A stretch of DNA of 64,000 nucleotides, from contig CAKOTD010000001.1 of assembly GCA_934120015.1 (NCBI GenBank), positions 836 to 64,835 on the forward strand, given 5' to 3'. Positions 744-63,650 of the stretch are shown here, in pieces. A program made the position numbers and the translations under genes. The notes under the pieces are model-generated. The model did not search any database, was not told the origin of the DNA, and worked only from the letters and a program-made list of their open reading frames with translations. How positions within the stretch are numbered: position 1 is the first letter of the stretch; every line of letters begins with the position of its first letter. Source of the DNA: an uncultured Bacilli bacterium (GTDB lineage Bacteria; Bacillota_I; Bacilli_A; RF39; UBA660).

Positions 744-2567
744 CTATAATTTTTGATCAAAACCACTTCTCTTAAATAGCCTTTCAAGATCATAATTAGA
801 ATAAAAAATAATTGTAGGTCTTCCATGAGGACAATTATAGGGATTATGGCATTTACGTAAATCACTAATTAAATTTTCCATTTCTTCCATTGTAATGTTT
901 TCATTTGCTTTTATTGACATTTTACAAGCCATCGTTGCTGCTACTTTATCATTAAATTTTGCTATATCAAAATCTTTTTCTTTTTGAATAACTAAATCTA
1001 ATATTTTCTTTATTGCTTCATCTTCATAACCCTTTGGAAGCCATGTAGGATGTTCTTTGACAATAATAGAATTTAAACCAAATTCTTCTATAGTAAAGCC
1101 CATATTCTTCAAAAATTCAAAATTTTCTTTTATAATTAGAAATTCAGTGCTTGTATATTCGATTGTCAAAGGAAAAAGCATTTGAATCATTACTTTAGAA
1201 GGATTAGATAATTTTTCACTACAAACTTCATAATTAATTCTTTCTTTAGCAGCGTGCTGATCAATTAAATACATTCCTTTTTCATTTTGACAAATGATAT
1301 AAGTTCCATGTACTAAACCCACCGGATATAGTTCTGGTATATCCTCTTTATCATCAGCCTTTTTTATATTTTCGTATACAGTTTCCTGGTCACTTACTCT
1401 TTCTAAGTTTAATGTGACTTTCTCATATTTATCCTTATCAGATTTTACCTCTTTAGTTTTATCTTGATTAAAATCTATCTCATCTATACTTTTAGTAATA
1501 GAGGGTTTTGTATCATAAATAGGATATTCTTCAACACCTTCACTTACAACTTCCATACTAACTTCTGGGATTAAAATTTTTTTATCAAGAGCCTTTTTAA
1601 TCATATTACTTATTAGTAATGTTAATTCCTCAAATTTACTAAATTTTATATCCATTTTAGTTGGGTGAACATTTACATCTACTAAACTTGGATCTAAGTT
1701 TATATTTAAAACTACTATAGGATATCTATTATCAGGTTTATATGAATGATAACTATCGTTTATTACTCTGTTTAAATCAATGTTCTTTACAATTCTTCCA
1801 TTAACTAAAGTAATAATATGATTTCTACTAGCTCTATGTACTTCTGGAAGTGTAATATAACCACTAATTATATAGTCACTATCTTCAGCCTTTACTTCAA
1901 TCATCTTTTTTACAACATCAATACCATATATACATGAAATTGTTTTTAATAAGTTATTAGTCCCATCTGTTTTTAGAATAACATTTCCATTATTAGATAA
2001 TGTAAATCTGATTTCTGGATGAGAAAGTGCTAATTTATTAATATATTCAGTTATATAAGCTAATTCAGCATATAAACTCTTTAAATGTTTAAGTCTAGCT
2101 GGGGTATTATAAAATAAATTCCTAACGGAAATTATAGTACCTTTTCTTAAATCTCCTCTTTCAACACTTTCAATTTTTCCACCATTTATTTTAATAATAG
2201 TACCCATATTTCCTTCAGATGTTTTTAATTCAATTTCACTGACACTAGCTATAGAAGCAAGTGCTTCACCCCTAAAACCTAAAGTATTTATATGAAATAA
2301 ATCATCTTCAGATAATAATTTACTAGTAGCATGCCTGCAAAAAGACAATTTAGCATCTTCTTCAGACATACCACAACCATTATCAGTTATTTTAATTTCT
2401 CTAGTTCCAGCATCTATTAACTCAATTTTAATTTCTGTACTTTTAGCATCTATACTATTTTCGGTAAGTTCCTTAACAACTGATGCACACCTCTCAACTA
2501 CCTCACCTGCTGCTATTTTATTAGCCAGCAATTCATCCATAACTTTTATTTTTGCCATACTTAACAC
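744..2567 (-). CDS. mutL: DNA mismatch repair protein MutL
   Basis: N-terminus IKVMDELLANKIAAGEVVERCASVVKELTENSIDA plus DNGCGM and GFRGEAL, the GHKL ATPase motifs of MutL. The length of 607 aa is typical. Confidence 0.95.
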   Translation of the reverse strand: MLSMAKIKVMDELLANKIAAGEVVERCASVVKELTENSIDAKSTEIKIELIDAGTREIKITDNGCGMSEEDAKLSFCRHATSKLLSEDDLFHINTLGFRGEALASIASVSEIELKTSEGNMGTIIKINGGKIESVERGDLRKGTIISVRNLFYNTPARLKHLKSLYAELAYITEYINKLALSHPEIRFTLSNNGNVILKTDGTNNLLKTISCIYGIDVVKKMIEVKAEDSDYIISGYITLPEVHRASRNHIITLVNGRIVKNIDLNRVINDSYHSYKPDNRYPIVVLNINLDPSLVDVNVHPTKMDIKFSKFEELTLLISNMIKKALDKKILIPEVSMEVVSEGVEEYPIYDTKPSITKSIDEIDFNQDKTKEVKSDKDKYEKVTLNLERVSDQETVYENIKKADDKEDIPELYPVGLVHGTYIICQNEKGMYLIDQHAAKERINYEVCSEKLSNPSKVMIQMLFPLTIEYTSTEFLIIKENFEFLKNMGFTIEEFGLNSIIVKEHPTWLPKGYEDEAIKKILDLVIQKEKDFDIAKFNDKVAATMACKMSIKANENITMEEMENLISDLRKCHNPYNCPHGRPTIIFYSNYDLERLFKRSGFDQKL

Positions 2568-17775: not shown

Positions 17776-17851
17776 TGGTGCCGAAAATAGGACTTGAACC
17801 TACGACCTGCTGATTACGAGACAGCTGCTCTACCTACTGAGCCATTTCGGC
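17776..17851 (-). tRNA. tRNA-Thr (anticodon CGT), CCA encoded
   Basis: Folded by hand. Acceptor GCCGAAA/TTTCGGC, D stem GCTC/GAGC, anticodon loop cTCGTaa with U33 and A37, T stem GTAGG/CCTAT with loop TTCAAGT, discriminator A, then CCA. Confidence 0.9.
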
Positions 17852-41955: not shown

Positions 41956-42029
41956 TGGTGCTGAATGACTGAATTGAACAGTCCTCTGATGCTTACCATG
42001 CATCTGTTTTACCACTAAACTAAATCAGC
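41956..42029 (-). tRNA. tRNA-Thr (anticodon GGT), CCA encoded
   Basis: Folded by hand. D stem GTTT/AAAC, anticodon stem GATGC/GCATC with loop aTGGTaa, T stem GACTG/CAGTC with loop TTCAATT. The acceptor stem has one T:T mismatch at 6:67. Confidence 0.85.
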
Positions 42030-50698: not shown

Positions 50699-51298
50699 AT
50701 GTTAATATCACATAGAGGAAATAATAATCATGACTATAAAGAAAACACACAGAGTGCTATTGCAACTGTACTAAAAGAAGATTATATTGATGGTGTAGAA
50801 TTTGATATTAGGTTAACTAAAGATAACAAAATAGTTTTATGCCATAACTTTATTCATAATGGAAAAATTATCAAATATACAAATGCTAAAGAACTTTCAT
50901 TAGATTTATTAACTATTGTTCTTAAGAATATTAATACAAGAAAAATAATTTTAATTGAAATAAAAGATAATAATAAGAAAATTGTTGATATATTATATAA
51001 AATTATTAAACGATATAATAATATAAATTTTTATTTCCAATCATTTTATAAAGAGGTACTAACATATCTAAAATCAAAAAATTCTGAGCTCAAAGTTGGG
51101 ATAGTCACATTTAATAGTAATGTAAATATTAAAGGATTAGACTTCATAAGTGTATATTTTAAAAACTATAAAAATAACAGATTAATGACATTTCTATGGA
51201 CGATAAACAATTTAAAAGAAATAAAAAAACATCAGCAATTATATATTATTACTGATGTTGCATACAAAATAAATACCCAAAAGACCGTTACTGACTAA
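50699..51298 (+). CDS. Glycerophosphodiester phosphodiesterase family protein
   Basis: ISHRGN, ENT and GVEFDIRLTKDNKIVLCHN are the GDPD catalytic motifs. Confidence 0.8.
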   Translation: MLISHRGNNNHDYKENTQSAIATVLKEDYIDGVEFDIRLTKDNKIVLCHNFIHNGKIIKYTNAKELSLDLLTIVLKNINTRKIILIEIKDNNKKIVDILYKIIKRYNNINFYFQSFYKEVLTYLKSKNSELKVGIVTFNSNVNIKGLDFISVYFKNYKNNRLMTFLWTINNLKEIKKHQQLYIITDVAYKINTQKTVTD

Positions 51299-51493
51299 CG
51301 ATAAAAACCTGATCTCCCAGGTGGGCATCACATTTTAAATTTTAGGATTCTTATCTATAAAATAAGCCTTCAACACCATTTAAAAATTAGATTCCCAATC
51401 GTTATAAATTAGTAGGTTTTTCTAAATGCCAGCTATCATATCTTCTAGGCAATATAATTGTAACATATATTTCTTCTTTTGACAATAGTAGCA

Positions 51494-56242: not shown

Positions 56243-58045
56243 TTACTCATTATTTTTATTAACAAGATAATAACACATACTAATTATTATAGGAATTTGA
56301 AATACAATACCTATTGCATATCTAAAATATGTATTTACAGGTGATGCAAAACAAACTAATATAAGAGAAATTGTTGGTGCTAACCAAATTAGATATTTAT
56401 ACTTTTTTATTTTTAAAACAATAAATACTACAAATAGGACAATCCAATTACAAAAAGCTATATTTACAATATACCCTAGTAAAGGAATATATTGGAATCC
56501 AACCCCATAACAACTAAGTATATTTCTAAGACCATTAAGATTATTATAGTGATAATTGATTCCATCATTAATTAGTCTTTCATCATATTTATAGTATATA
56601 TACCAAGAATGATTTGGATAAAAATAACCATATGTATTGTGCAATGTTGCTTCAATATAAACATTAGGATGTTTCACTAATCCTTTAAACCATACTTTAA
56701 AATAATCTTTTAAATCATCATTACTTGCATATTTATTAAAAGCATTTTTTACAGGATCAGCCTTTAAAGGATTATATCTACTTGCAAGATCATCAATCCC
56801 AAGCACCTTATCAATAACACCTTTATCATAATCACTCAATTCATTTTCATGATATTTTACATACCTAGCAGTTTGTTGAAATGGTATTGAAAGTACTTCC
56901 CTAATGCTACCCGGTGTTATTTTTAATGCAGGTAATAAAATATGAGCATATGATAAATAAATTGTAAGAGTTATAAGAGTTACAAATAAGCAATTCTTTC
57001 TAATTTTTTTCATAAAAACTATCATAAATGGCATTGCAAATAAAATTGCGTATATTCCATTATTTCTAAGCATTGTAACCAATAACATAATTATAACAAG
57101 TATAAATCCATTTTTAAAATTCAAATTTTCATCCTTGATTATATCAAATATTTTAATACAAAATAGAATAACGAAACAATTAAACATAACATCTTTTACA
57201 ACTGACATAGCATAAAAAGGAAAAACAGGAACTAAAGAATATATAATTAAACTTATTACTCTAATTATCGAAGGAGTATTAATTTTTTTCATATAATAAA
57301 TTGTATAACTAAGAGTTCCTACTAATGTGCAAATTTGAATGATACTATACATAAATATACCAACATTTACACTTCCAATTATATCTCCAACTTTAGCAAG
57401 TCCACCTAACAATACTGTATGAAGAACAGGATGATGATTAGTAATATAGACATTTGGATCAAGCAAAATAGAATAATCTAAATACTTAGTTTTTATATGA
57501 AAAAATTGTTTTATTTGATTACTTGGATCAGGAGATAAAATACCTGGATAAAAAGATATTATATATGGTAAATAACAAATAATAATTATAATAAAAGGTA
57601 ATATAAATGGATGTTTTTCAAAAATAAATTTATATACTTTATTACTATAACTTTTAAACTTATACTTATTAATAAATTCAAAAATAGTGTTAGTACTAAA
57701 CAAGAATAAATAATAAAAACCAATTAACTTTATTAAACTAATAAACAATAGTAATATGTTATGTACAATTATAGTAAAATTACCATTAACTTTAAAACTA
57801 TAACCAACAATCATAAATAATGCTAGTATAAGTGATAAAATTTTAAATGATTTCTTACTTTTGAAAATATTTTTTTGATAACAAAAGTATAAAATTATAA
57901 CTGAAATAAACAACGCAAAAAAATTAATAGAAATATTATAATTCTTATTAATCTTTAAACATAAAGATAGTGAACTAAACACCGATAATATTACACAAAG
58001 TATATTATTCATAAACATCTTATTTTTTTCTTTCATAAAGCTCAT
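56243..58045 (-). CDS. Large polytopic membrane protein, DUF6020-like (putative GT-C-type transferase)
   Basis: About 15 TM helices and a loop with ITNHHPVLHTVLLGG. The preferred start is the ATG at 58045 after a GAGGGA RBS. The track starts at a TTG at 58060. Confidence 0.6.
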   Translation of the reverse strand: MSFMKEKNKMFMNNILCVILSVFSSLSLCLKINKNYNISINFFALFISVIILYFCYQKNIFKSKKSFKILSLILALFMIVGYSFKVNGNFTIIVHNILLLFISLIKLIGFYYLFLFSTNTIFEFINKYKFKSYSNKVYKFIFEKHPFILPFIIIIICYLPYIISFYPGILSPDPSNQIKQFFHIKTKYLDYSILLDPNVYITNHHPVLHTVLLGGLAKVGDIIGSVNVGIFMYSIIQICTLVGTLSYTIYYMKKINTPSIIRVISLIIYSLVPVFPFYAMSVVKDVMFNCFVILFCIKIFDIIKDENLNFKNGFILVIIMLLVTMLRNNGIYAILFAMPFMIVFMKKIRKNCLFVTLITLTIYLSYAHILLPALKITPGSIREVLSIPFQQTARYVKYHENELSDYDKGVIDKVLGIDDLASRYNPLKADPVKNAFNKYASNDDLKDYFKVWFKGLVKHPNVYIEATLHNTYGYFYPNHSWYIYYKYDERLINDGINYHYNNLNGLRNILSCYGVGFQYIPLLGYIVNIAFCNWIVLFVVFIVLKIKKYKYLIWLAPTISLILVCFASPVNTYFRYAIGIVFQIPIIISMCYYLVNKNNE

Positions 58046-59489
58046 AAACAAATCCCTCAAATTCTTCTTTACTAATTAATCTATATTTTTTTAACCTTTT
58101 TTTAAAGTCTTTCTCATTCTTTTTTCTTCTTGTTACAACAAAATCAACTTTTCCATTTTTGATAACATCATCTTGAGAAGTACAATTATCACTGAATACC
58201 TTGCAAGCAATATTTTGTCTCATAAAGAATTTTGTCGTTGGAAGAATATCTGCAGCAAAATAAAATCCACCATCTAAAAAACGATAATTTAATAGAGTAG
58301 CATTATCTTTTTTATTAATTATGCTAGCAAATTTATACTGGACTAAATCTTCTTTTTTATATTTACTAAAATAATAATTAGGACTTTTAAATAAAGCAGC
58401 AATACTTAAAGTTATGGTAATTAATAAGACAATTAAATATATTTTTTTATTAATATACTTATCAATTAACATATAAATGGTTATTAACCCCAAAATACTA
58501 TATATAACTACATCTAAGTAATAATAAATATAATTTTTACCACCTATATATATTCCAAGAAGTAAAGCAAAGAAAGACAATATAATAGGAAGACGTTTCA
58601 AAAATAAGTTATTTTTGCAAGCTAGAAAACTCATTCCTACAATAATCAGAAACAATATATAGATATTATTTATCATTGATTTATAACAAATAAATACCAT
58701 ATAAAGTACTTTATAAATAATTGATTGTTTTTTAGCATATAAAAATATATTTGCAATAAAATAATTGTCAATAAAATCCAGTAATGCATTATTTAAAATA
58801 AAATATATCATAACTAATAATACAGGTATAGAAAAACCTAATAATAAATAAAAAACACAAAATAAAAATTCTCTATAATTTTTACTAACTAACTTTTTAA
58901 TCAAAATAGTCAAAACAAAAACTATCCAAAAACCAAGTAATGTATATTTAATTAGAGAAACTACTCCAATAATAATTCCTGTTACAAATAATGTTTTATT
59001 ATCAATAATATTCTTATCAATATATCTTATGAAATGATAAAATGAAATACATAGCAAAGGAAAAATAAATTCTTCTGCACTACCACCCAATGCAAAATAA
59101 TTTGACGTTAAAAAGAGGGTTGAAAATACTGGAATTATAACAAAAATATATTTCTTATTTAGAAAAATATTAATAGTTTTAGCAAGAAAATATAAGGAAA
59201 TTGTAAAAGAAATTATTTCTAAGAAATATACCCCAATAAAACTCTTATGTGATATTAGTGCACCAATTGTATAAATAAAATAAAGTATTGGTCCTTTCTG
59301 CTCAAATAAATCTCGGTATGGAACAAGCCCATTTAATATCCCCTTTGCAACAGTAAAAAATGCATTGGCATCAACCCACTTATTCATTGGATATAGAAAT
59401 GAACACTCAGAACAGATTGTAATTCCCATAAAAGAAATAAATAAACAAAATACTAATATAAAATACTTATTTTTAACAATTTTACTCAT
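58020..59489 (-). CDS. GT-C fold glycosyltransferase (ArnT/PMT, GT39/83-like)
   Basis: Multi-TM protein. The first extracytoplasmic loop WVDANAFFTVAKGILNGLVPYRDLFEQKGPILYF is typical of ArnT/PMT_2-type enzymes. The start was moved to MSKIVKNKYF at 59489. Confidence 0.65.
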   Translation of the reverse strand: MSKIVKNKYFILVFCLFISFMGITICSECSFLYPMNKWVDANAFFTVAKGILNGLVPYRDLFEQKGPILYFIYTIGALISHKSFIGVYFLEIISFTISLYFLAKTINIFLNKKYIFVIIPVFSTLFLTSNYFALGGSAEEFIFPLLCISFYHFIRYIDKNIIDNKTLFVTGIIIGVVSLIKYTLLGFWIVFVLTILIKKLVSKNYREFLFCVFYLLLGFSIPVLLVMIYFILNNALLDFIDNYFIANIFLYAKKQSIIYKVLYMVFICYKSMINNIYILFLIIVGMSFLACKNNLFLKRLPIILSFFALLLGIYIGGKNYIYYYLDVVIYSILGLITIYMLIDKYINKKIYLIVLLITITLSIAALFKSPNYYFSKYKKEDLVQYKFASIINKKDNATLLNYRFLDGGFYFAADILPTTKFFMRQNIACKVFSDNCTSQDDVIKNGKVDFVVTRRKKNEKDFKKRLKKYRLISKEEFEGFVYELYERKK

Positions 59490-59590
59490 ATAAAACTCCC
59501 ATAAACTATTTAAATTATATACCAAACAAACAAAATAGTAAACAAAAAGAGATAATATTATCTCTTATGAATAATCTAAATTTCTAACAC

Positions 59591-60058
59591 TTATTTAATA
59601 ATCTCATAAGTAATACTGGTTACATTACTTAAATCACTATCAAAATCTACATATAAAGTTTTTGTTGCTTTAGACTTTATTGTTCCAGAAACAGGAGCAA
59701 CTGCAAATCCTCCATCACCTAATACATTATTCCCATCTTTATCCTTTAAAATAACTTTAAAATAATCTATCGTTATATCTTCATCAGTATTATTAGTAGC
59801 TTCTATAGTAATTTTAGAACTATATGCAGTGCTTGTTAAATTTGTATTACTCAATGTAATTCCATCTACTATCTGTTCCTTTACCACTTCACTATTTTCA
59901 TTTTTTTCCTCTTTTAAGGTACCATCATCATTAATCTCTTCTTTTATTTTATTATCTTCAGGAGTGGGATTTTCATCTTTCTTATTTTTCTTTCCACATC
60001 CTGTCATTAGCATAAAACCAATCATTATAACTAAACTTGTACTTATTATCTTTTTCAT
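59591..60058 (-). CDS. Lipoprotein with an Ig-like (DUF4352-type) beta domain
   Basis: Lipobox LMTGC. The C-terminal half (ITIEATNNTDEDITIDYFKVILKDKDGN..TKTLYVDF) is beta-sandwich-like. A GGAGG RBS lies 30 nt after the giant gene stop. Confidence 0.65.
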   Translation of the reverse strand: MKKIISTSLVIMIGFMLMTGCGKKNKKDENPTPEDNKIKEEINDDGTLKEEKNENSEVVKEQIVDGITLSNTNLTSTAYSSKITIEATNNTDEDITIDYFKVILKDKDGNNVLGDGGFAVAPVSGTIKSKATKTLYVDFDSDLSNVTSITYEIIK

Positions 60059-60087: not shown

Positions 60088-63000
60088 CTAACAATTACCA
60101 TTACAACATGCATAACTATTTGCACAACTATTATAACAACTACTTGCACCACCAGTACTAGCACAATTAGCATTACATCGTGCAAAGGAATCAGCACAAC
60201 TGCTTCCACCACCACCACTACATGAACCTGTTGGAGAGGATCTAAATGTTCTTGATATCTCATTACCATCAACATCTCTACATACTGTATAAACACTACC
60301 AGATAATGAACCATTTGTACAAGTAACAGTATTTTCATCCTTACAGGTGATAGTCTTCATTGTAAATCCAAAAATTACATCATTACTTACCTTATTAGAA
60401 TTATTTGTACAATTTGCTGTAATAGATATTGGTATAGCATCAGTTATTGTACCACCATATTCAGAACAATCATATAAATTTGCTGATTCACAATAATCTT
60501 TACAACATGTTTTATATGTAGTTTCAGCTGTTGCAGTGCAATCACCCCTACCGCCTGAAGCTGATGAACAAGCATTACCTGCATTTTCAGCTCTTGCATC
60601 ACATTCACTTGGACAAGTAAATACTACATCTGAGGCCTGAATCGTAAAGGTATTGGTTGTTCCAGATTTAATTACACTTGTTCCTGCTTTAGCATTCCAT
60701 GAATATGATTTTACTCCAGATGATCCTGCACTACATCCTATTGTTATTGTATATGTTTCATCTTTAGCTACTATTGCACCATTTGTTACATTTGTTCCTG
60801 AACTTGTCTTTACAGTTATTGTTGCTGTTGGCGGTGCTGTATTTATTGTATATGTTTGATAATACCATCCCGAACCATTAACAGGGCTTTGATTTTGTAT
60901 ATTTCCTGCCTTATCATATACTTTTGCATATATTATCCATGAACCATCACTATCAAGTGGTACATCATAGTATGATGATGTTGTTGGATTTGCATTATTT
61001 GATATTGACTGAATTACTCCGTCTTTATATACATGTACATACATATATGAATAATTTGTGTCATTTGCTGTTACTCTTACGGTCTGTGCTGTATCATAAC
61101 TTCCTCCTGCTACACTATAACTTACTGTTGGCTTTGTTGTATCTACATCCCATACTGTTAGATGATTTCTACCTGCTGTTCCTATACTTATATTTCCTGC
61201 ATTATCTCTGGCAATTATATGTGGTATCCATCTTCCATCTTTTAACATTGGAATACTCCATTGATTATTCCCAATCGATACTGCATTATTTACCCATGTT
61301 CCATCTTTCCAAATAGATATTTGATTATTACTTGATAGACCACTTCCTCCTGTGTCTGTTAATGTTAGAGTTGGGGTTATTCCACTACTAAAGAAGCCCA
61401 TATAATATGATCCACCATACAAATCTGTTAATGATTGAGCATTATAATTATAGGATATTGTTGGAGCTATTTTATCTATTGAAATTATATGTGTTGGAGT
61501 TAGACCGCCAACATTTCCAGCTTTATCAACCGCTCTAAACCATATTCCTGTTCTAGTCGAATTTTCAATAGTAAAATTATTACCCGCAATATCAACAAAA
61601 GTTAATCCATTATATGTCATTTGATAATGGTCTACTCCACTTTCCGTGTCTGTAGATGATAAATATGCTGTTACTGATTGATTTGTCCACGTATCTGATT
61701 CATATATTTGCCCATCGGCAGTTTTATATACTACTGTTGTTAATGGCCCTGTTGTATCTATCATAGTTACATTCTTTGACGAACTTATTTCATTTATTCC
61801 ATCACTTACTTTTGCTTCTATATTTCCATTACTCTTTAATACTATTTTATCTGTTTTTCCACTTACTTCATACCATGTTCCATTTGTTATTATTGTTCCA
61901 TCTTCTTTTGTTGCTGTTCCATTTATTACTCTATATTTTTTTGTATAATTTCCGTCTGGATATGTTATTGTTACTATTTTACTTTGTGTCCATACTCCTG
62001 AATCTGTTACTGTAAAACTTGGTATCTTTATTTCTCCTGTTGTTCCTACTGTACTTGCTTCTGTACTATTTCCTGCTTCATCTGTACATTTTACTTTTAA
62101 GTTATATGTTCCTGTCTTCAAATTACTAAATGTATATATATTATTTGTTCCTGTTTTATAATTTAATCCATTATCACTACTATATTCATAACTTTTTATT
62201 CCTATGTTATCTGTGCATGTTGCTTTTACTTCTATCGAATTTGTTGTTGTATTTGTTATCTCTAATGTTGCTGTTGGTTTCTCTGTATCTATTTTATCTA
62301 TTATGAACATATATCCTTCTGATATATTCCCTACTAAATCTTTACTATATGCATAATATGTTCCATTACTATTTATTTCATATTTTCCTGTTTTTCCTGT
62401 TATACTTTCCCATGTACAATTTTCACTACTATTTTCGTTTGTTATACAATAATGGGTTACTCCTGATACTGCACTTCCATTTTCTTCTATATCATCTACT
62501 TCTATTGTTATTTCATCTTTTTTACTATATCCTTCATTTATATCTTTTACACTTATTATTGGTTTTGCATTATCTATATTTATTACTTTCTCTGTTTTAT
62601 CTACTACATTTGTTCCATCTGTTATTCTTCCTATTATAGTTGTATTATTTTCCGTTATTTTTATTATTCCTGTATATTCCCTAAATTCTCCATCATTTAG
62701 ACTATACATTATTTTAAATCCTTCTAACATTATTCCATCATAGCTTATTGTTGCTTCTTTTTCTTGTGCTAATCCTTTTGGCGTTACTTCTATTATTGGA
62801 GCCTTTAGTATTTCTGTTTTTACTTCTTTTATTTCTGATTCTATTGTTTCTATATTTTCTCTACAATTTTCTTTTTCTGTTAATCCATTATATACTCTTA
62901 CTTTTATTTGATATTTTGTATTGAACAACAAGTCTTTATATTCATATATATTATTTTGAGGATTTTCAGCTGTCTGCCATGTTATTCCTCCATCTTTACT

Positions 63001-63534
63001 ATATTCATATTTACTTATTCCACTTTCACTATCTTTGGCATTTACTACTATTTTTATTCTATTTAAAGTCACCGTATAACTAAAATCTACACTTTCTGGT
63101 GCAGTCATATCACATAGTACTCCTATATCATCACAATTTCCGCTCTTTACCTTTACTTTTGTATCATTATATGTCTTATATGCACACCATTTATTATTTG
63201 TATATCCTATTGCCTGGTTTCCTTCCCTATCTACATATGCATCTCCTACACCTGTTATTTCTCCTATATGCTTTGTACCTATTGGTTCTTCTTCAAAATA
63301 TATTTTTTGATCCTTTATTATATACATATCATTTTCTAATAATGATGTATATCCACTACTTGCCCTATCTAATTTTATTGTATTTAATATTCCTACTGCA
63401 CTTTGTCTAAATGCGGATTTTTCTGCTCTTCTTGTTATCCCATTTACTATTGGTACTGTTATTAATGCGATTATTGCTAGTACTACTATTACTGTTAATA
63501 ATTCTATTAATGTAAATCCTTTATTTTTATTCAT
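60088..63534 (-). CDS. Giant type IV pilin-like surface protein (1148 aa): prepilin N-terminus, multiple Ig/FN3-like modules and a Cys-rich C-terminal tail
   Basis: N-terminus MNKNKG/FTLIELLTVIVVLAIIALITVPIV (class III signal, Glu at +5). Repeated modules carry SG(I/V)xxYEYS and D.AGN motifs. The last 175 aa contain 21 Cys by my count. GAGGAG RBS. Confidence 0.85.
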   Translation of the reverse strand: MNKNKGFTLIELLTVIVVLAIIALITVPIVNGITRRAEKSAFRQSAVGILNTIKLDRASSGYTSLLENDMYIIKDQKIYFEEEPIGTKHIGEITGVGDAYVDREGNQAIGYTNNKWCAYKTYNDTKVKVKSGNCDDIGVLCDMTAPESVDFSYTVTLNRIKIVVNAKDSESGISKYEYSKDGGITWQTAENPQNNIYEYKDLLFNTKYQIKVRVYNGLTEKENCRENIETIESEIKEVKTEILKAPIIEVTPKGLAQEKEATISYDGIMLEGFKIMYSLNDGEFREYTGIIKITENNTTIIGRITDGTNVVDKTEKVINIDNAKPIISVKDINEGYSKKDEITIEVDDIEENGSAVSGVTHYCITNENSSENCTWESITGKTGKYEINSNGTYYAYSKDLVGNISEGYMFIIDKIDTEKPTATLEITNTTTNSIEVKATCTDNIGIKSYEYSSDNGLNYKTGTNNIYTFSNLKTGTYNLKVKCTDEAGNSTEASTVGTTGEIKIPSFTVTDSGVWTQSKIVTITYPDGNYTKKYRVINGTATKEDGTIITNGTWYEVSGKTDKIVLKSNGNIEAKVSDGINEISSSKNVTMIDTTGPLTTVVYKTADGQIYESDTWTNQSVTAYLSSTDTESGVDHYQMTYNGLTFVDIAGNNFTIENSTRTGIWFRAVDKAGNVGGLTPTHIISIDKIAPTISYNYNAQSLTDLYGGSYYMGFFSSGITPTLTLTDTGGSGLSSNNQISIWKDGTWVNNAVSIGNNQWSIPMLKDGRWIPHIIARDNAGNISIGTAGRNHLTVWDVDTTKPTVSYSVAGGSYDTAQTVRVTANDTNYSYMYVHVYKDGVIQSISNNANPTTSSYYDVPLDSDGSWIIYAKVYDKAGNIQNQSPVNGSGWYYQTYTINTAPPTATITVKTSSGTNVTNGAIVAKDETYTITIGCSAGSSGVKSYSWNAKAGTSVIKSGTTNTFTIQASDVVFTCPSECDARAENAGNACSSASGGRGDCTATAETTYKTCCKDYCESANLYDCSEYGGTITDAIPISITANCTNNSNKVSNDVIFGFTMKTITCKDENTVTCTNGSLSGSVYTVCRDVDGNEISRTFRSSPTGSCSGGGGSSCADSFARCNANCASTGGASSCYNSCANSYACCNGNC

Positions 63535-63565
63535 GAACTTACTCCTCTTCTATACTTATACCTAT

Positions 63566-63597
63566 AGTATACCCCCCCCCCCCTCGACAATTGTCAA
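63566..63597 (-). promoter_or_regulatory. Candidate promoter of the giant pilin-like gene with a G12 tract in the spacer
   Basis: The minus strand reads TTGACA (63597-63592), then attgtcga plus G12 (a 20-nt spacer), then TATACT (63571-63566), which ends 31 nt upstream of the ATG. Confidence 0.5.
63572..63583. repeat. Homopolymeric C12 (plus strand) / G12 (coding strand) tract
   Basis: Counted directly: nine C at 63572-63580 plus three C at 63581-63583. It is unique in this AT-rich window. Confidence 0.95.
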
Positions 63598-63619
63598 GGG
63601 GATGGTGGGGTATTTATCA

Positions 63620-63645
63620 AAAGAAAAGCAATCAATAATGATTGC
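63620..63645 (-). terminator. Terminator of the upstream 97-aa gene
   Basis: The minus strand reads GCAATCA(ttat)TGATTGC followed by TTTTCTTTT. Confidence 0.6.
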
Positions 63646-63650
63646 CTAAA

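Follow-up and report, generated by a model that had tools for sequence, protein, structure and literature searches.

A length-variable poly-G tract in the promoter spacer of an orphan giant pilin-like gene: a candidate slippage switch in uncultured gut Bacilli

The window analysed here is a 64,000-nt stretch of DNA from an uncultured Bacilli bacterium, with a G+C content of 25%, and it matches a 130-kb human-gut metagenome scaffold (L001). Close to its end, the minus strand carries a gene (60088–63534) for a prepilin-type modular protein of 1148 aa. The protein starts with MNKNKG|FTLIELLTVIVVLAIIALITVP (MNKNKG|FTLIELL), a class III signal peptide with Glu at +5 that runs into a hydrophobic N-terminal helix, as in pilins and pseudopilins. 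The Pfam N_methyl match (1.9e-7) lies above the cutoff, and it is followed by Ig-like domains (Big_13) and a Cys-rich tail; structure comparison matched only the N-terminal helix, to a geopilin chain. This is the sole prepilin motif in the window, and among the scanned subset of window ORFs neither a prepilin peptidase nor genes for an assembly ATPase or platform were seen; the gene is classed as an orphan. A prophage origin was considered and rejected, as the protein had no phage match. The 3′ half of the gene (60088–62000, minus strand) has a G+C content of 0.33 against 0.25, and encodes a Gly/Ser/Thr/Cys-rich tail with many Cys residues that ends in SCANSYACCNGNC.

Downstream on the same strand lies a small lipoprotein gene (59591–60058, 155 aa, lipobox LMTGC). 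No terminator was predicted between the two genes, and a gene of 153–155 aa also follows the pilin homolog in five related contigs (L001–L003, L084 and L093), indicating that the lipoprotein gene is probably co-transcribed with the pilin-like gene. Two large polytopic membrane proteins, a PMT_2-type glycosyltransferase and a DUF6020 protein, are encoded further downstream (56243–59525, minus strand), again with no predicted terminator between them and the pilin–lipoprotein pair; their glycosylation substrate may be a protein or polymer of the cell surface. Elsewhere in the window are genes for the DNA mismatch repair endonuclease MutL (744–2567, minus strand; TIGR00585, 1e-166), whose closest named relatives are entries labelled 'MAG: Bacilli bacterium' at 66–67% identity, for a 6S RNA (51270–51454, minus strand; Rfam RF00013, 85 bits), and for two tRNAs (17779–17851 and 41959–42029). 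Contigs that carry a paralog or homologs of the pilin-like gene also encode SpoVA proteins, a sporulation-type sigma factor, YabP and YabG, and a description of the host as a spore-forming low-GC Firmicutes bacterium is therefore reasonable.

The region upstream of the pilin-like gene is compact, and all of its elements are read on the minus strand. The ATG at 63534 is preceded at a distance of 7 nt by a ribosome-binding site, GAGGAG (63542–63547), and at 31 nt by a −10 hexamer, TATACT (63566–63571). Next to the −10 hexamer is a homopolymer of 12 G (63572–63583; C12 on the plus strand), followed by an 8-nt non-repeat segment, ATTGTCGA (63584–63591), and a perfect −35 hexamer, TTGACA (63592–63597), which gives a spacer of 8 + 12 = 20 nt. 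The −35 hexamer and the non-repeat segment together form an imperfect palindrome, TTGACAATTGTCGA, and the G12 run is bracketed by this palindrome and TATACTATAGG. Beyond the −35 hexamer is a C-rich arm, ATACCCCACCATCCCC (63598–63613), that is predicted to pair with G12 plus TAT and thereby to enclose the −35. The intrinsic terminator of the upstream DUF2513 gene (63616–63647; a 9-pair stem, a 4-nt loop and a T-rich tail) insulates the pilin promoter from read-through. An initial sequence-only reading had described a G12 run between TTGACA and TATACT with a 20-nt spacer in an AT-rich window, and this layout was confirmed in every detail, as were the palindrome and the G-rich plus-strand segment that it had pointed out.

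The tract is unique within the window. It is the sole G/C run of at least 6 nt, the next longest being 5 nt, and only about 1.8e-5 C12 runs are expected from the base composition. Perfect TTGACA hexamers are also sparse, with 28 occurrences on both strands together. A simple promoter scanner was uninformative in this AT-rich sequence, with 67 sites reported against a chance expectation of 58, and 20-nt spacers are invisible to it.

Comparison with related genes provided a more direct view of the promoter. A paralog on contig L092, which comes from the same sample as one of the contigs with an 11-G tract (G11), is nearly identical to the window gene over about 150 nt at the 5′ end of the coding sequence. 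In its upstream region, an AT-rich spacer of 17 nt separates TTGCAA from a TATACT that is located 31 nt 5′ of the ATG, as in the window. Moreover, three more distant homologs (L084, L085 and L093; 43–51% identity) carry TTGCAA, 17 nt and TATAAT, likewise with no tract. Because the paralog and the distant homologs keep the same distance from the −10 to the ATG together with a 17-nt spacer, the hexamers in the window are taken to be the promoter of the pilin-like gene, in agreement with their original assignment. The predicted ordinary promoters of this gene family thus use a 17-nt spacer, and the poly-G version is, by this comparison, the same promoter with its spacer replaced and lengthened by the G run. 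In an alignment of the tract-bearing promoters and the tract-less paralog, TATACT is invariant, and the tract is placed by the comparison between a functional −35 and −10. From this arrangement, transcription is predicted to start about 7 nt past TATACT, near 63557–63560.

The near-identity with the paralog covers the first ~150 nt of the coding sequence (window 63385–63534, minus strand, versus L092:3001–3150). The paralog product has 1080 aa, with different C-terminal domains behind an ordinary promoter, and the pilin alleles themselves vary in length among strains (1148, 1161, 953, 1082 and at least 882 aa). A constant N-terminus joined to exchangeable C-terminal modules may be a substrate for recombination. 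Contig breaks near the locus were considered as a sign of tract heterogeneity and were rejected, since the ~150-nt repeat shared with L092 explains them: within the coding sequence, four contigs (L087–L090) begin between +91 and +141, and the contigs that complement them (L096–L098) stop at about +66 to +84. In metagenomic work, consensus assemblies hide tract variation, and shared paralog 5′ ends break contigs.

Tract length was then compared across assemblies of the same locus. Using the pilin, the downstream partner and three DUF2513 protein variants, we found about 20 independent assemblies in which the intergenic region is complete; they derive from gut metagenomes of different studies and were made with metaSPAdes, MEGAHIT and Logan. 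A search of JGI metagenomes with an exact DNA pattern of the locus gave 0 matches. Both hexamers were invariant across the ~20 assemblies, whereas the tract was not: it had 11 G in 16–17 of them, 12 G in two (the window's own sample and L107) and 10 G in one, the more divergent L003. The G12 of the window is therefore a minority allele, and the mode, G11, corresponds to a 19-nt spacer. G12 occurred on two flank haplotypes, ATACCCCACCATCCCC and AAACTCCACCATTCCC, each of which was also found with G11, and a change in length must therefore have happened more than once. Calls of G11 versus G12 from short-read assemblies can be uncertain, but the existence of the tract is not in doubt. Invariance at 12 G across strains, which would have spoken against the proposed variability, was thus not observed at the level of assemblies. 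Most samples have G11 as their consensus, so that from one host to the next the tract seems rather stable. The sequence-only reading had further noted that the loss of three G would give the optimal 17-nt spacing; by count, a G9 allele does have a 17-nt spacer, but no such allele occurred among the ~20 assemblies of this locus. By the usual in-silico criteria, namely a repeat that is free of interruptions and long enough to slip (for G/C, about 8 nt or more), a position within the promoter spacer and inter-strain length differences on the same flanks, all of which are found here, the locus is putatively phase-variable.

The design is not confined to this locus. A contig scan by protein alignment was swamped by generic pilin N-termini and did not recover the species of the window, and it yielded an unbiased control set of 57 low-GC loci (433 kb) picked by protein similarity alone. 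In these 433 kb, all G/C runs of at least 7 nt precede a prepilin motif by 62–165 nt, and it is the coding strand that carries the G; the loci with runs include six from five other Bacilli MAGs. A targeted metagenome scan for G8 or more at 40–70 nt before a KGFTLIE-coding motif gave 52 loci, more than 40 of which are further cases. Within the 300 kb of low-GC sequence from these loci, 41 of 42 runs of at least 8 nt are pilin-associated, and the single exception, at the edge of a contig, also follows a promoter of this type. The design is shared by dozens of loci from human-gut metagenomes (Hadza samples included) and other metagenomes. The tract had at first been treated as an isolated oddity, a view that does not hold: the multi-locus scans reveal a design that is widespread in uncultured low-GC gut Bacilli. 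The pilin genes with poly-G promoters are orphans amid housekeeping genes, outside pilus operons.

Two promoter families account for many of these cases. In the TTGACA family, 15 distinct low-GC loci have a perfect TTGACA, 3–11 nt, G9–12 and a −10 hexamer at the tract or no more than 2 nt from it, in the form of TATACT, TATAAT, TACAAT, TAAAAT or a TATGCT/TATGAT variant; many cases from the targeted scan show TTGACA, 7–11 nt, G9–11 and a −10 hexamer, sometimes with several paralogs per contig. The 15 spacers measure 14, 15, 16, 18, 18, 19 (six loci) and 20 nt (four loci), and none is 17 nt. The second, large family has the form TTGCTA-tatgcaaac-G8–11-TATTTT, and its tandem paralogs each have their own tract. 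In genomes of ~25% GC, the run is kept uninterrupted across diverged flanks. Furthermore, in four of seven groups of loci with near-identical flanks the tract is polymorphic by one G, and paralogs on one contig differ in tract length (L126/L156).

Several members of these families deserve separate mention. On L125 (2645–4974, minus strand), two tandem pilin-like genes of 332 and 340 aa have ~230 N-terminal residues in common and different C-termini, and both are preceded by an identical TTTACTATATGCAAAC-G10-TATTTT promoter; a single metagenome assembly (OIZF01) contains about 20 similar loci, in several cases as pairs on the same contig. On L126 (3840–3860) the tract is interrupted, GGGAGGGGGGGGG, and looks like a longer run that was split by a point mutation, a change that would leave a shorter mutable part and the 20-nt spacer. 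L131 and L134, which belong to the same family as L017, have TTGACA-agt-G9/G10-TG-TATGCT/TATGAT with spacers of only 14–15 nt, and expansion rather than contraction would therefore be needed to reach 17 nt.

Taken together, we consider it likely that the G tract is a slipped-strand contingency switch in the promoter spacer of the orphan giant type IV pilin-like gene. According to this model, the tract would be the variable spacer part of a sigma-A promoter that drives the pilin-like gene and the small lipoprotein gene. Slipped-strand mispairing during replication would add or remove single G:C pairs, and each such indel would alter both the distance and the rotational phase between TTGACA and TATACT, so that promoter strength would change in steps, with spacers of 17 nt for G9, 18 nt for G10, 19 nt for G11 and 20 nt for G12. 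Spacers of 19–20 nt are over-long, and low expression is therefore predicted: the natural alleles (G11 as the mode, G12 in the window) would leave the gene low or off in most cells, and contraction would turn it up. The dependence of expression on tract length, switching and its high rate, and display of the protein on the surface are inferred parts of the model. The earlier suggestion of a candidate phase-variation switch has in this way gained support from the length polymorphism, the reality of the tract and the promoter comparison, making it a strong in-silico candidate.

The absence of 17-nt spacers can be read in either of two ways: the gene is off by default, or G-rich spacers follow another spacing rule, with a shifted optimum. 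One possible reason for the absence is that consensus populations are in a low or off state, as is typical of costly or immunogenic surface proteins. A fixed, tuned spacer was also considered, which would hold a promoter of consensus type at a low strength for good, or make it depend on supercoiling or a further factor, and in which the length differences would be drift. The G11 consensus in 16–17 of ~20 assemblies and the clustering of TTGACA-type spacers at 19–20 nt, never at 17 nt, are consistent with such a role; so is the presence of MutL, since with MutL encoded in the window mismatch repair is probably active and would lower slippage rates. However, a non-repetitive spacer would do the same with no mutational risk, and uninterrupted G9–12 is retained across diverged loci in ~25% GC genomes. 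The one-G differences on identical flanks in four of seven groups, the occurrence of G12 on two haplotypes and the unequal paralogs of L126/L156 also argue against a fixed length, and we regard this explanation as unlikely. An origin of the run by chance, or as an artefact of sequencing, assembly or polishing such as the poly-G of two-colour chemistry, is hardly credible. Homopolymers of 11–12 nt are indeed hard to size with short reads, and one related contig (L017) starts, and another (L106) ends, exactly at the tract, ends that are only hints of length heterogeneity. Nevertheless, the same unique flanks surround the tract in ~20 assemblies from different studies and assemblers, the tract is internal to contigs of up to 140 kb, the ~1.8e-5 expectation leaves little room for chance, and the position of the tract relative to the promoter hexamers is conserved across species. 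The possibility of an assembly or polishing artefact, raised at the outset, was in this way answered by the recurrence of the same tract and hexamers in independent assemblies.

A different role for the same sequence is a hairpin, a cruciform or a palindromic operator, in which the repeat formed by ATACCCCACCATCCCC and G12TAT, tipped by TTGACAATTGTCGA, would block the −35 either by extruding or by binding a dimeric regulator, the length of the G tract mattering mainly for stem length. The predicted single-stranded DNA fold is stable (−15.5 kcal/mol, z = −3.1 to −4.9) and is kept in all three haplotypes of the species, and in the unrelated promoter of L131/L134 the −35 is surrounded by an analogous inverted repeat, ATACACCC...GGGTGTAT. 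However, 9 of 11 poly-G promoters of the TTGACA type lack the structure, as does the TTGCTA family, and a covariation of C and G counts seen in three sequences was gone with 20. Moreover, the structure has no U-tail and no Rfam match, and the palindrome core GACAATTGTC is not above chance in the window. This reading therefore appears quite improbable as the primary function. The hairpin or cruciform that had been offered as an alternative to the switch thus stands as a genuine predicted fold in this species and falls short as an account of the related promoters. We regard it as an optional, lineage-specific overlay that might influence slippage or access to the −35.

Related structural candidates were also examined and set aside. 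The apparent covariation of C-arm and G tract (10/12, 9/11 and 8/10 in three sequences) was rejected because the same C-arm occurs with both G11 and G12 among the ~20 contigs, and the operator idea was rejected because GACAATTGTC recurs in the window no more often than by chance. The hairpin of C-arm and G tract is not a terminator, as it has no U-tail (T-tail), and a search of Rfam at the tract site gave no match near a gathering score. As for a G-quadruplex, G12 by itself could form two tetrads at most, and there are just three short G runs on the opposite strand.

The slippage switch proposed here has precedents. Promoter-repeat contingency loci are textbook examples in Neisseria, Haemophilus and Mycoplasma and are hardly documented in commensal Firmicutes. 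The porA and opc genes of Neisseria reportedly carry a G/C homopolymer within or next to the −35/−10 spacer, with expression graded with tract length (van der Ende 1995; Sarkari 1994). In porA this is a poly-G run inside the spacer, and at opc a poly-C run; common porA alleles include the optimal 17-bp spacing. The likeness to our locus is the G/C homopolymer between or beside the two hexamers; in contrast, those hosts are Gram-negative pathogens, their common porA alleles include 17 bp as against 18–20 nt here, and here the pilin-like gene itself is the target. Phase-variable promoter repeats in Neisseria have been reviewed (PMC5320596, PMC5953494), and the pilin-linked poly-G tracts of this genus, in pilC and pgtA, lie within coding regions (PMC2193922).

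In Mycoplasma hyorhinis, the vlp genes have poly-A in the promoter, and the Vmm system of M. mycoides has TA repeats in the promoter spacer; in the passages of PMC10502178 that describe them, citing Citti & Wise 1995 and Persson et al. 2002, a simple repeat occupies the promoter of each family member, each gene is its own transcription unit, and indels switch transcription. Our loci resemble these systems in having a repeat in the promoter of a surface-protein gene, in a constant N-terminal region combined with variable C-terminal parts, and in a low-GC host of the Bacilli/Mollicutes radiation. They differ in that the repeat is poly-G in a ~25% GC genome rather than poly-A or TA, that the encoded proteins are of the prepilin type, with a class III signal peptide, rather than lipoproteins, and that the hosts are walled, spore-forming gut commensals; furthermore, switching is reported there and inferred from sequence here. 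In the gut commensal Bifidobacterium breve, slippage of intragenic G tracts toggles the pili of sortase-dependent pilus clusters, as demonstrated by maximum-depth sequencing (PMC9187656). That case shares with ours the commensal host and G-tract slippage on pilus-type genes, but the tract is inside the coding sequence and acts by frameshift, and the pili are sortase-dependent and belong to a high-GC actinobacterium. Tract length also modulates the transcription of genes for surface proteins at the poly-G upstream of the promoter of Treponema pallidum tpr genes and at the intergenic T-tract of Spy1336/R28 in Streptococcus pyogenes M28 (PMC7864442, PMC7098570), the latter being a Firmicutes precedent for an intergenic homopolymer (PMC7098570). 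These differ from our loci in the position of the tract relative to the hexamers, and they are single loci or small families of pathogens, none of them type IV pilin-like. In the literature searched, poly-G promoter tracts had not been reported for any type IV pilin-like gene of a Gram-positive bacterium. The design is thus very probably of a known kind, in a lineage where it has not been described earlier, and its interest is in its breadth, its multi-paralog organisation and its default over-long spacers rather than in a new principle.

As the same design precedes many pilin-like genes, often several per genome, the lineage would probably vary pilin-type adhesins combinatorially. More tentatively, and with slightly less than even confidence, we propose a 'pilin phasome' in low-GC spore-forming gut and rumen Bacilli, in which scattered or tandem orphan pilin-like adhesin genes would each be default-off through a 19–20-nt poly-G spacer in a consensus sigma-A promoter and would be switched independently by slippage, giving Vlp-like combinatorial surface variation, with a cruciform of C-arm and G tract around the −35 as a second, structural layer of control in some lineages. 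If the tracts do switch, these uncultured bacteria would vary pilus-type adhesins stochastically within the host, which would matter for colonisation, for the evasion of immunity (IgA), for variation in phage receptors and for the tracking of strains. The systematic 19–20-nt spacing moreover poses a simple, testable question about G-rich spacers at sigma-A promoters.

In addition, some loci carry the tract over or just 5′ of the −35. Three of them (L150, L161 and L164) have G8–9 abutting the 5′ side of a TAGACA/TAGACT −35, and then a spacer of normal length (17–18 nt) and TATAAT/TAATAT; tract length cannot alter hexamer spacing in this arrangement, and the tract would therefore act through upstream contacts. 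On three unrelated contigs with a GC content of ~0.5 (L121, L122 and L144), G8–9 lies 2–5 nt before the start codon of a pilin-like gene, at the position of the ribosome-binding site, which may represent a translational variant of the same idea. L144 carries two inverted copies.
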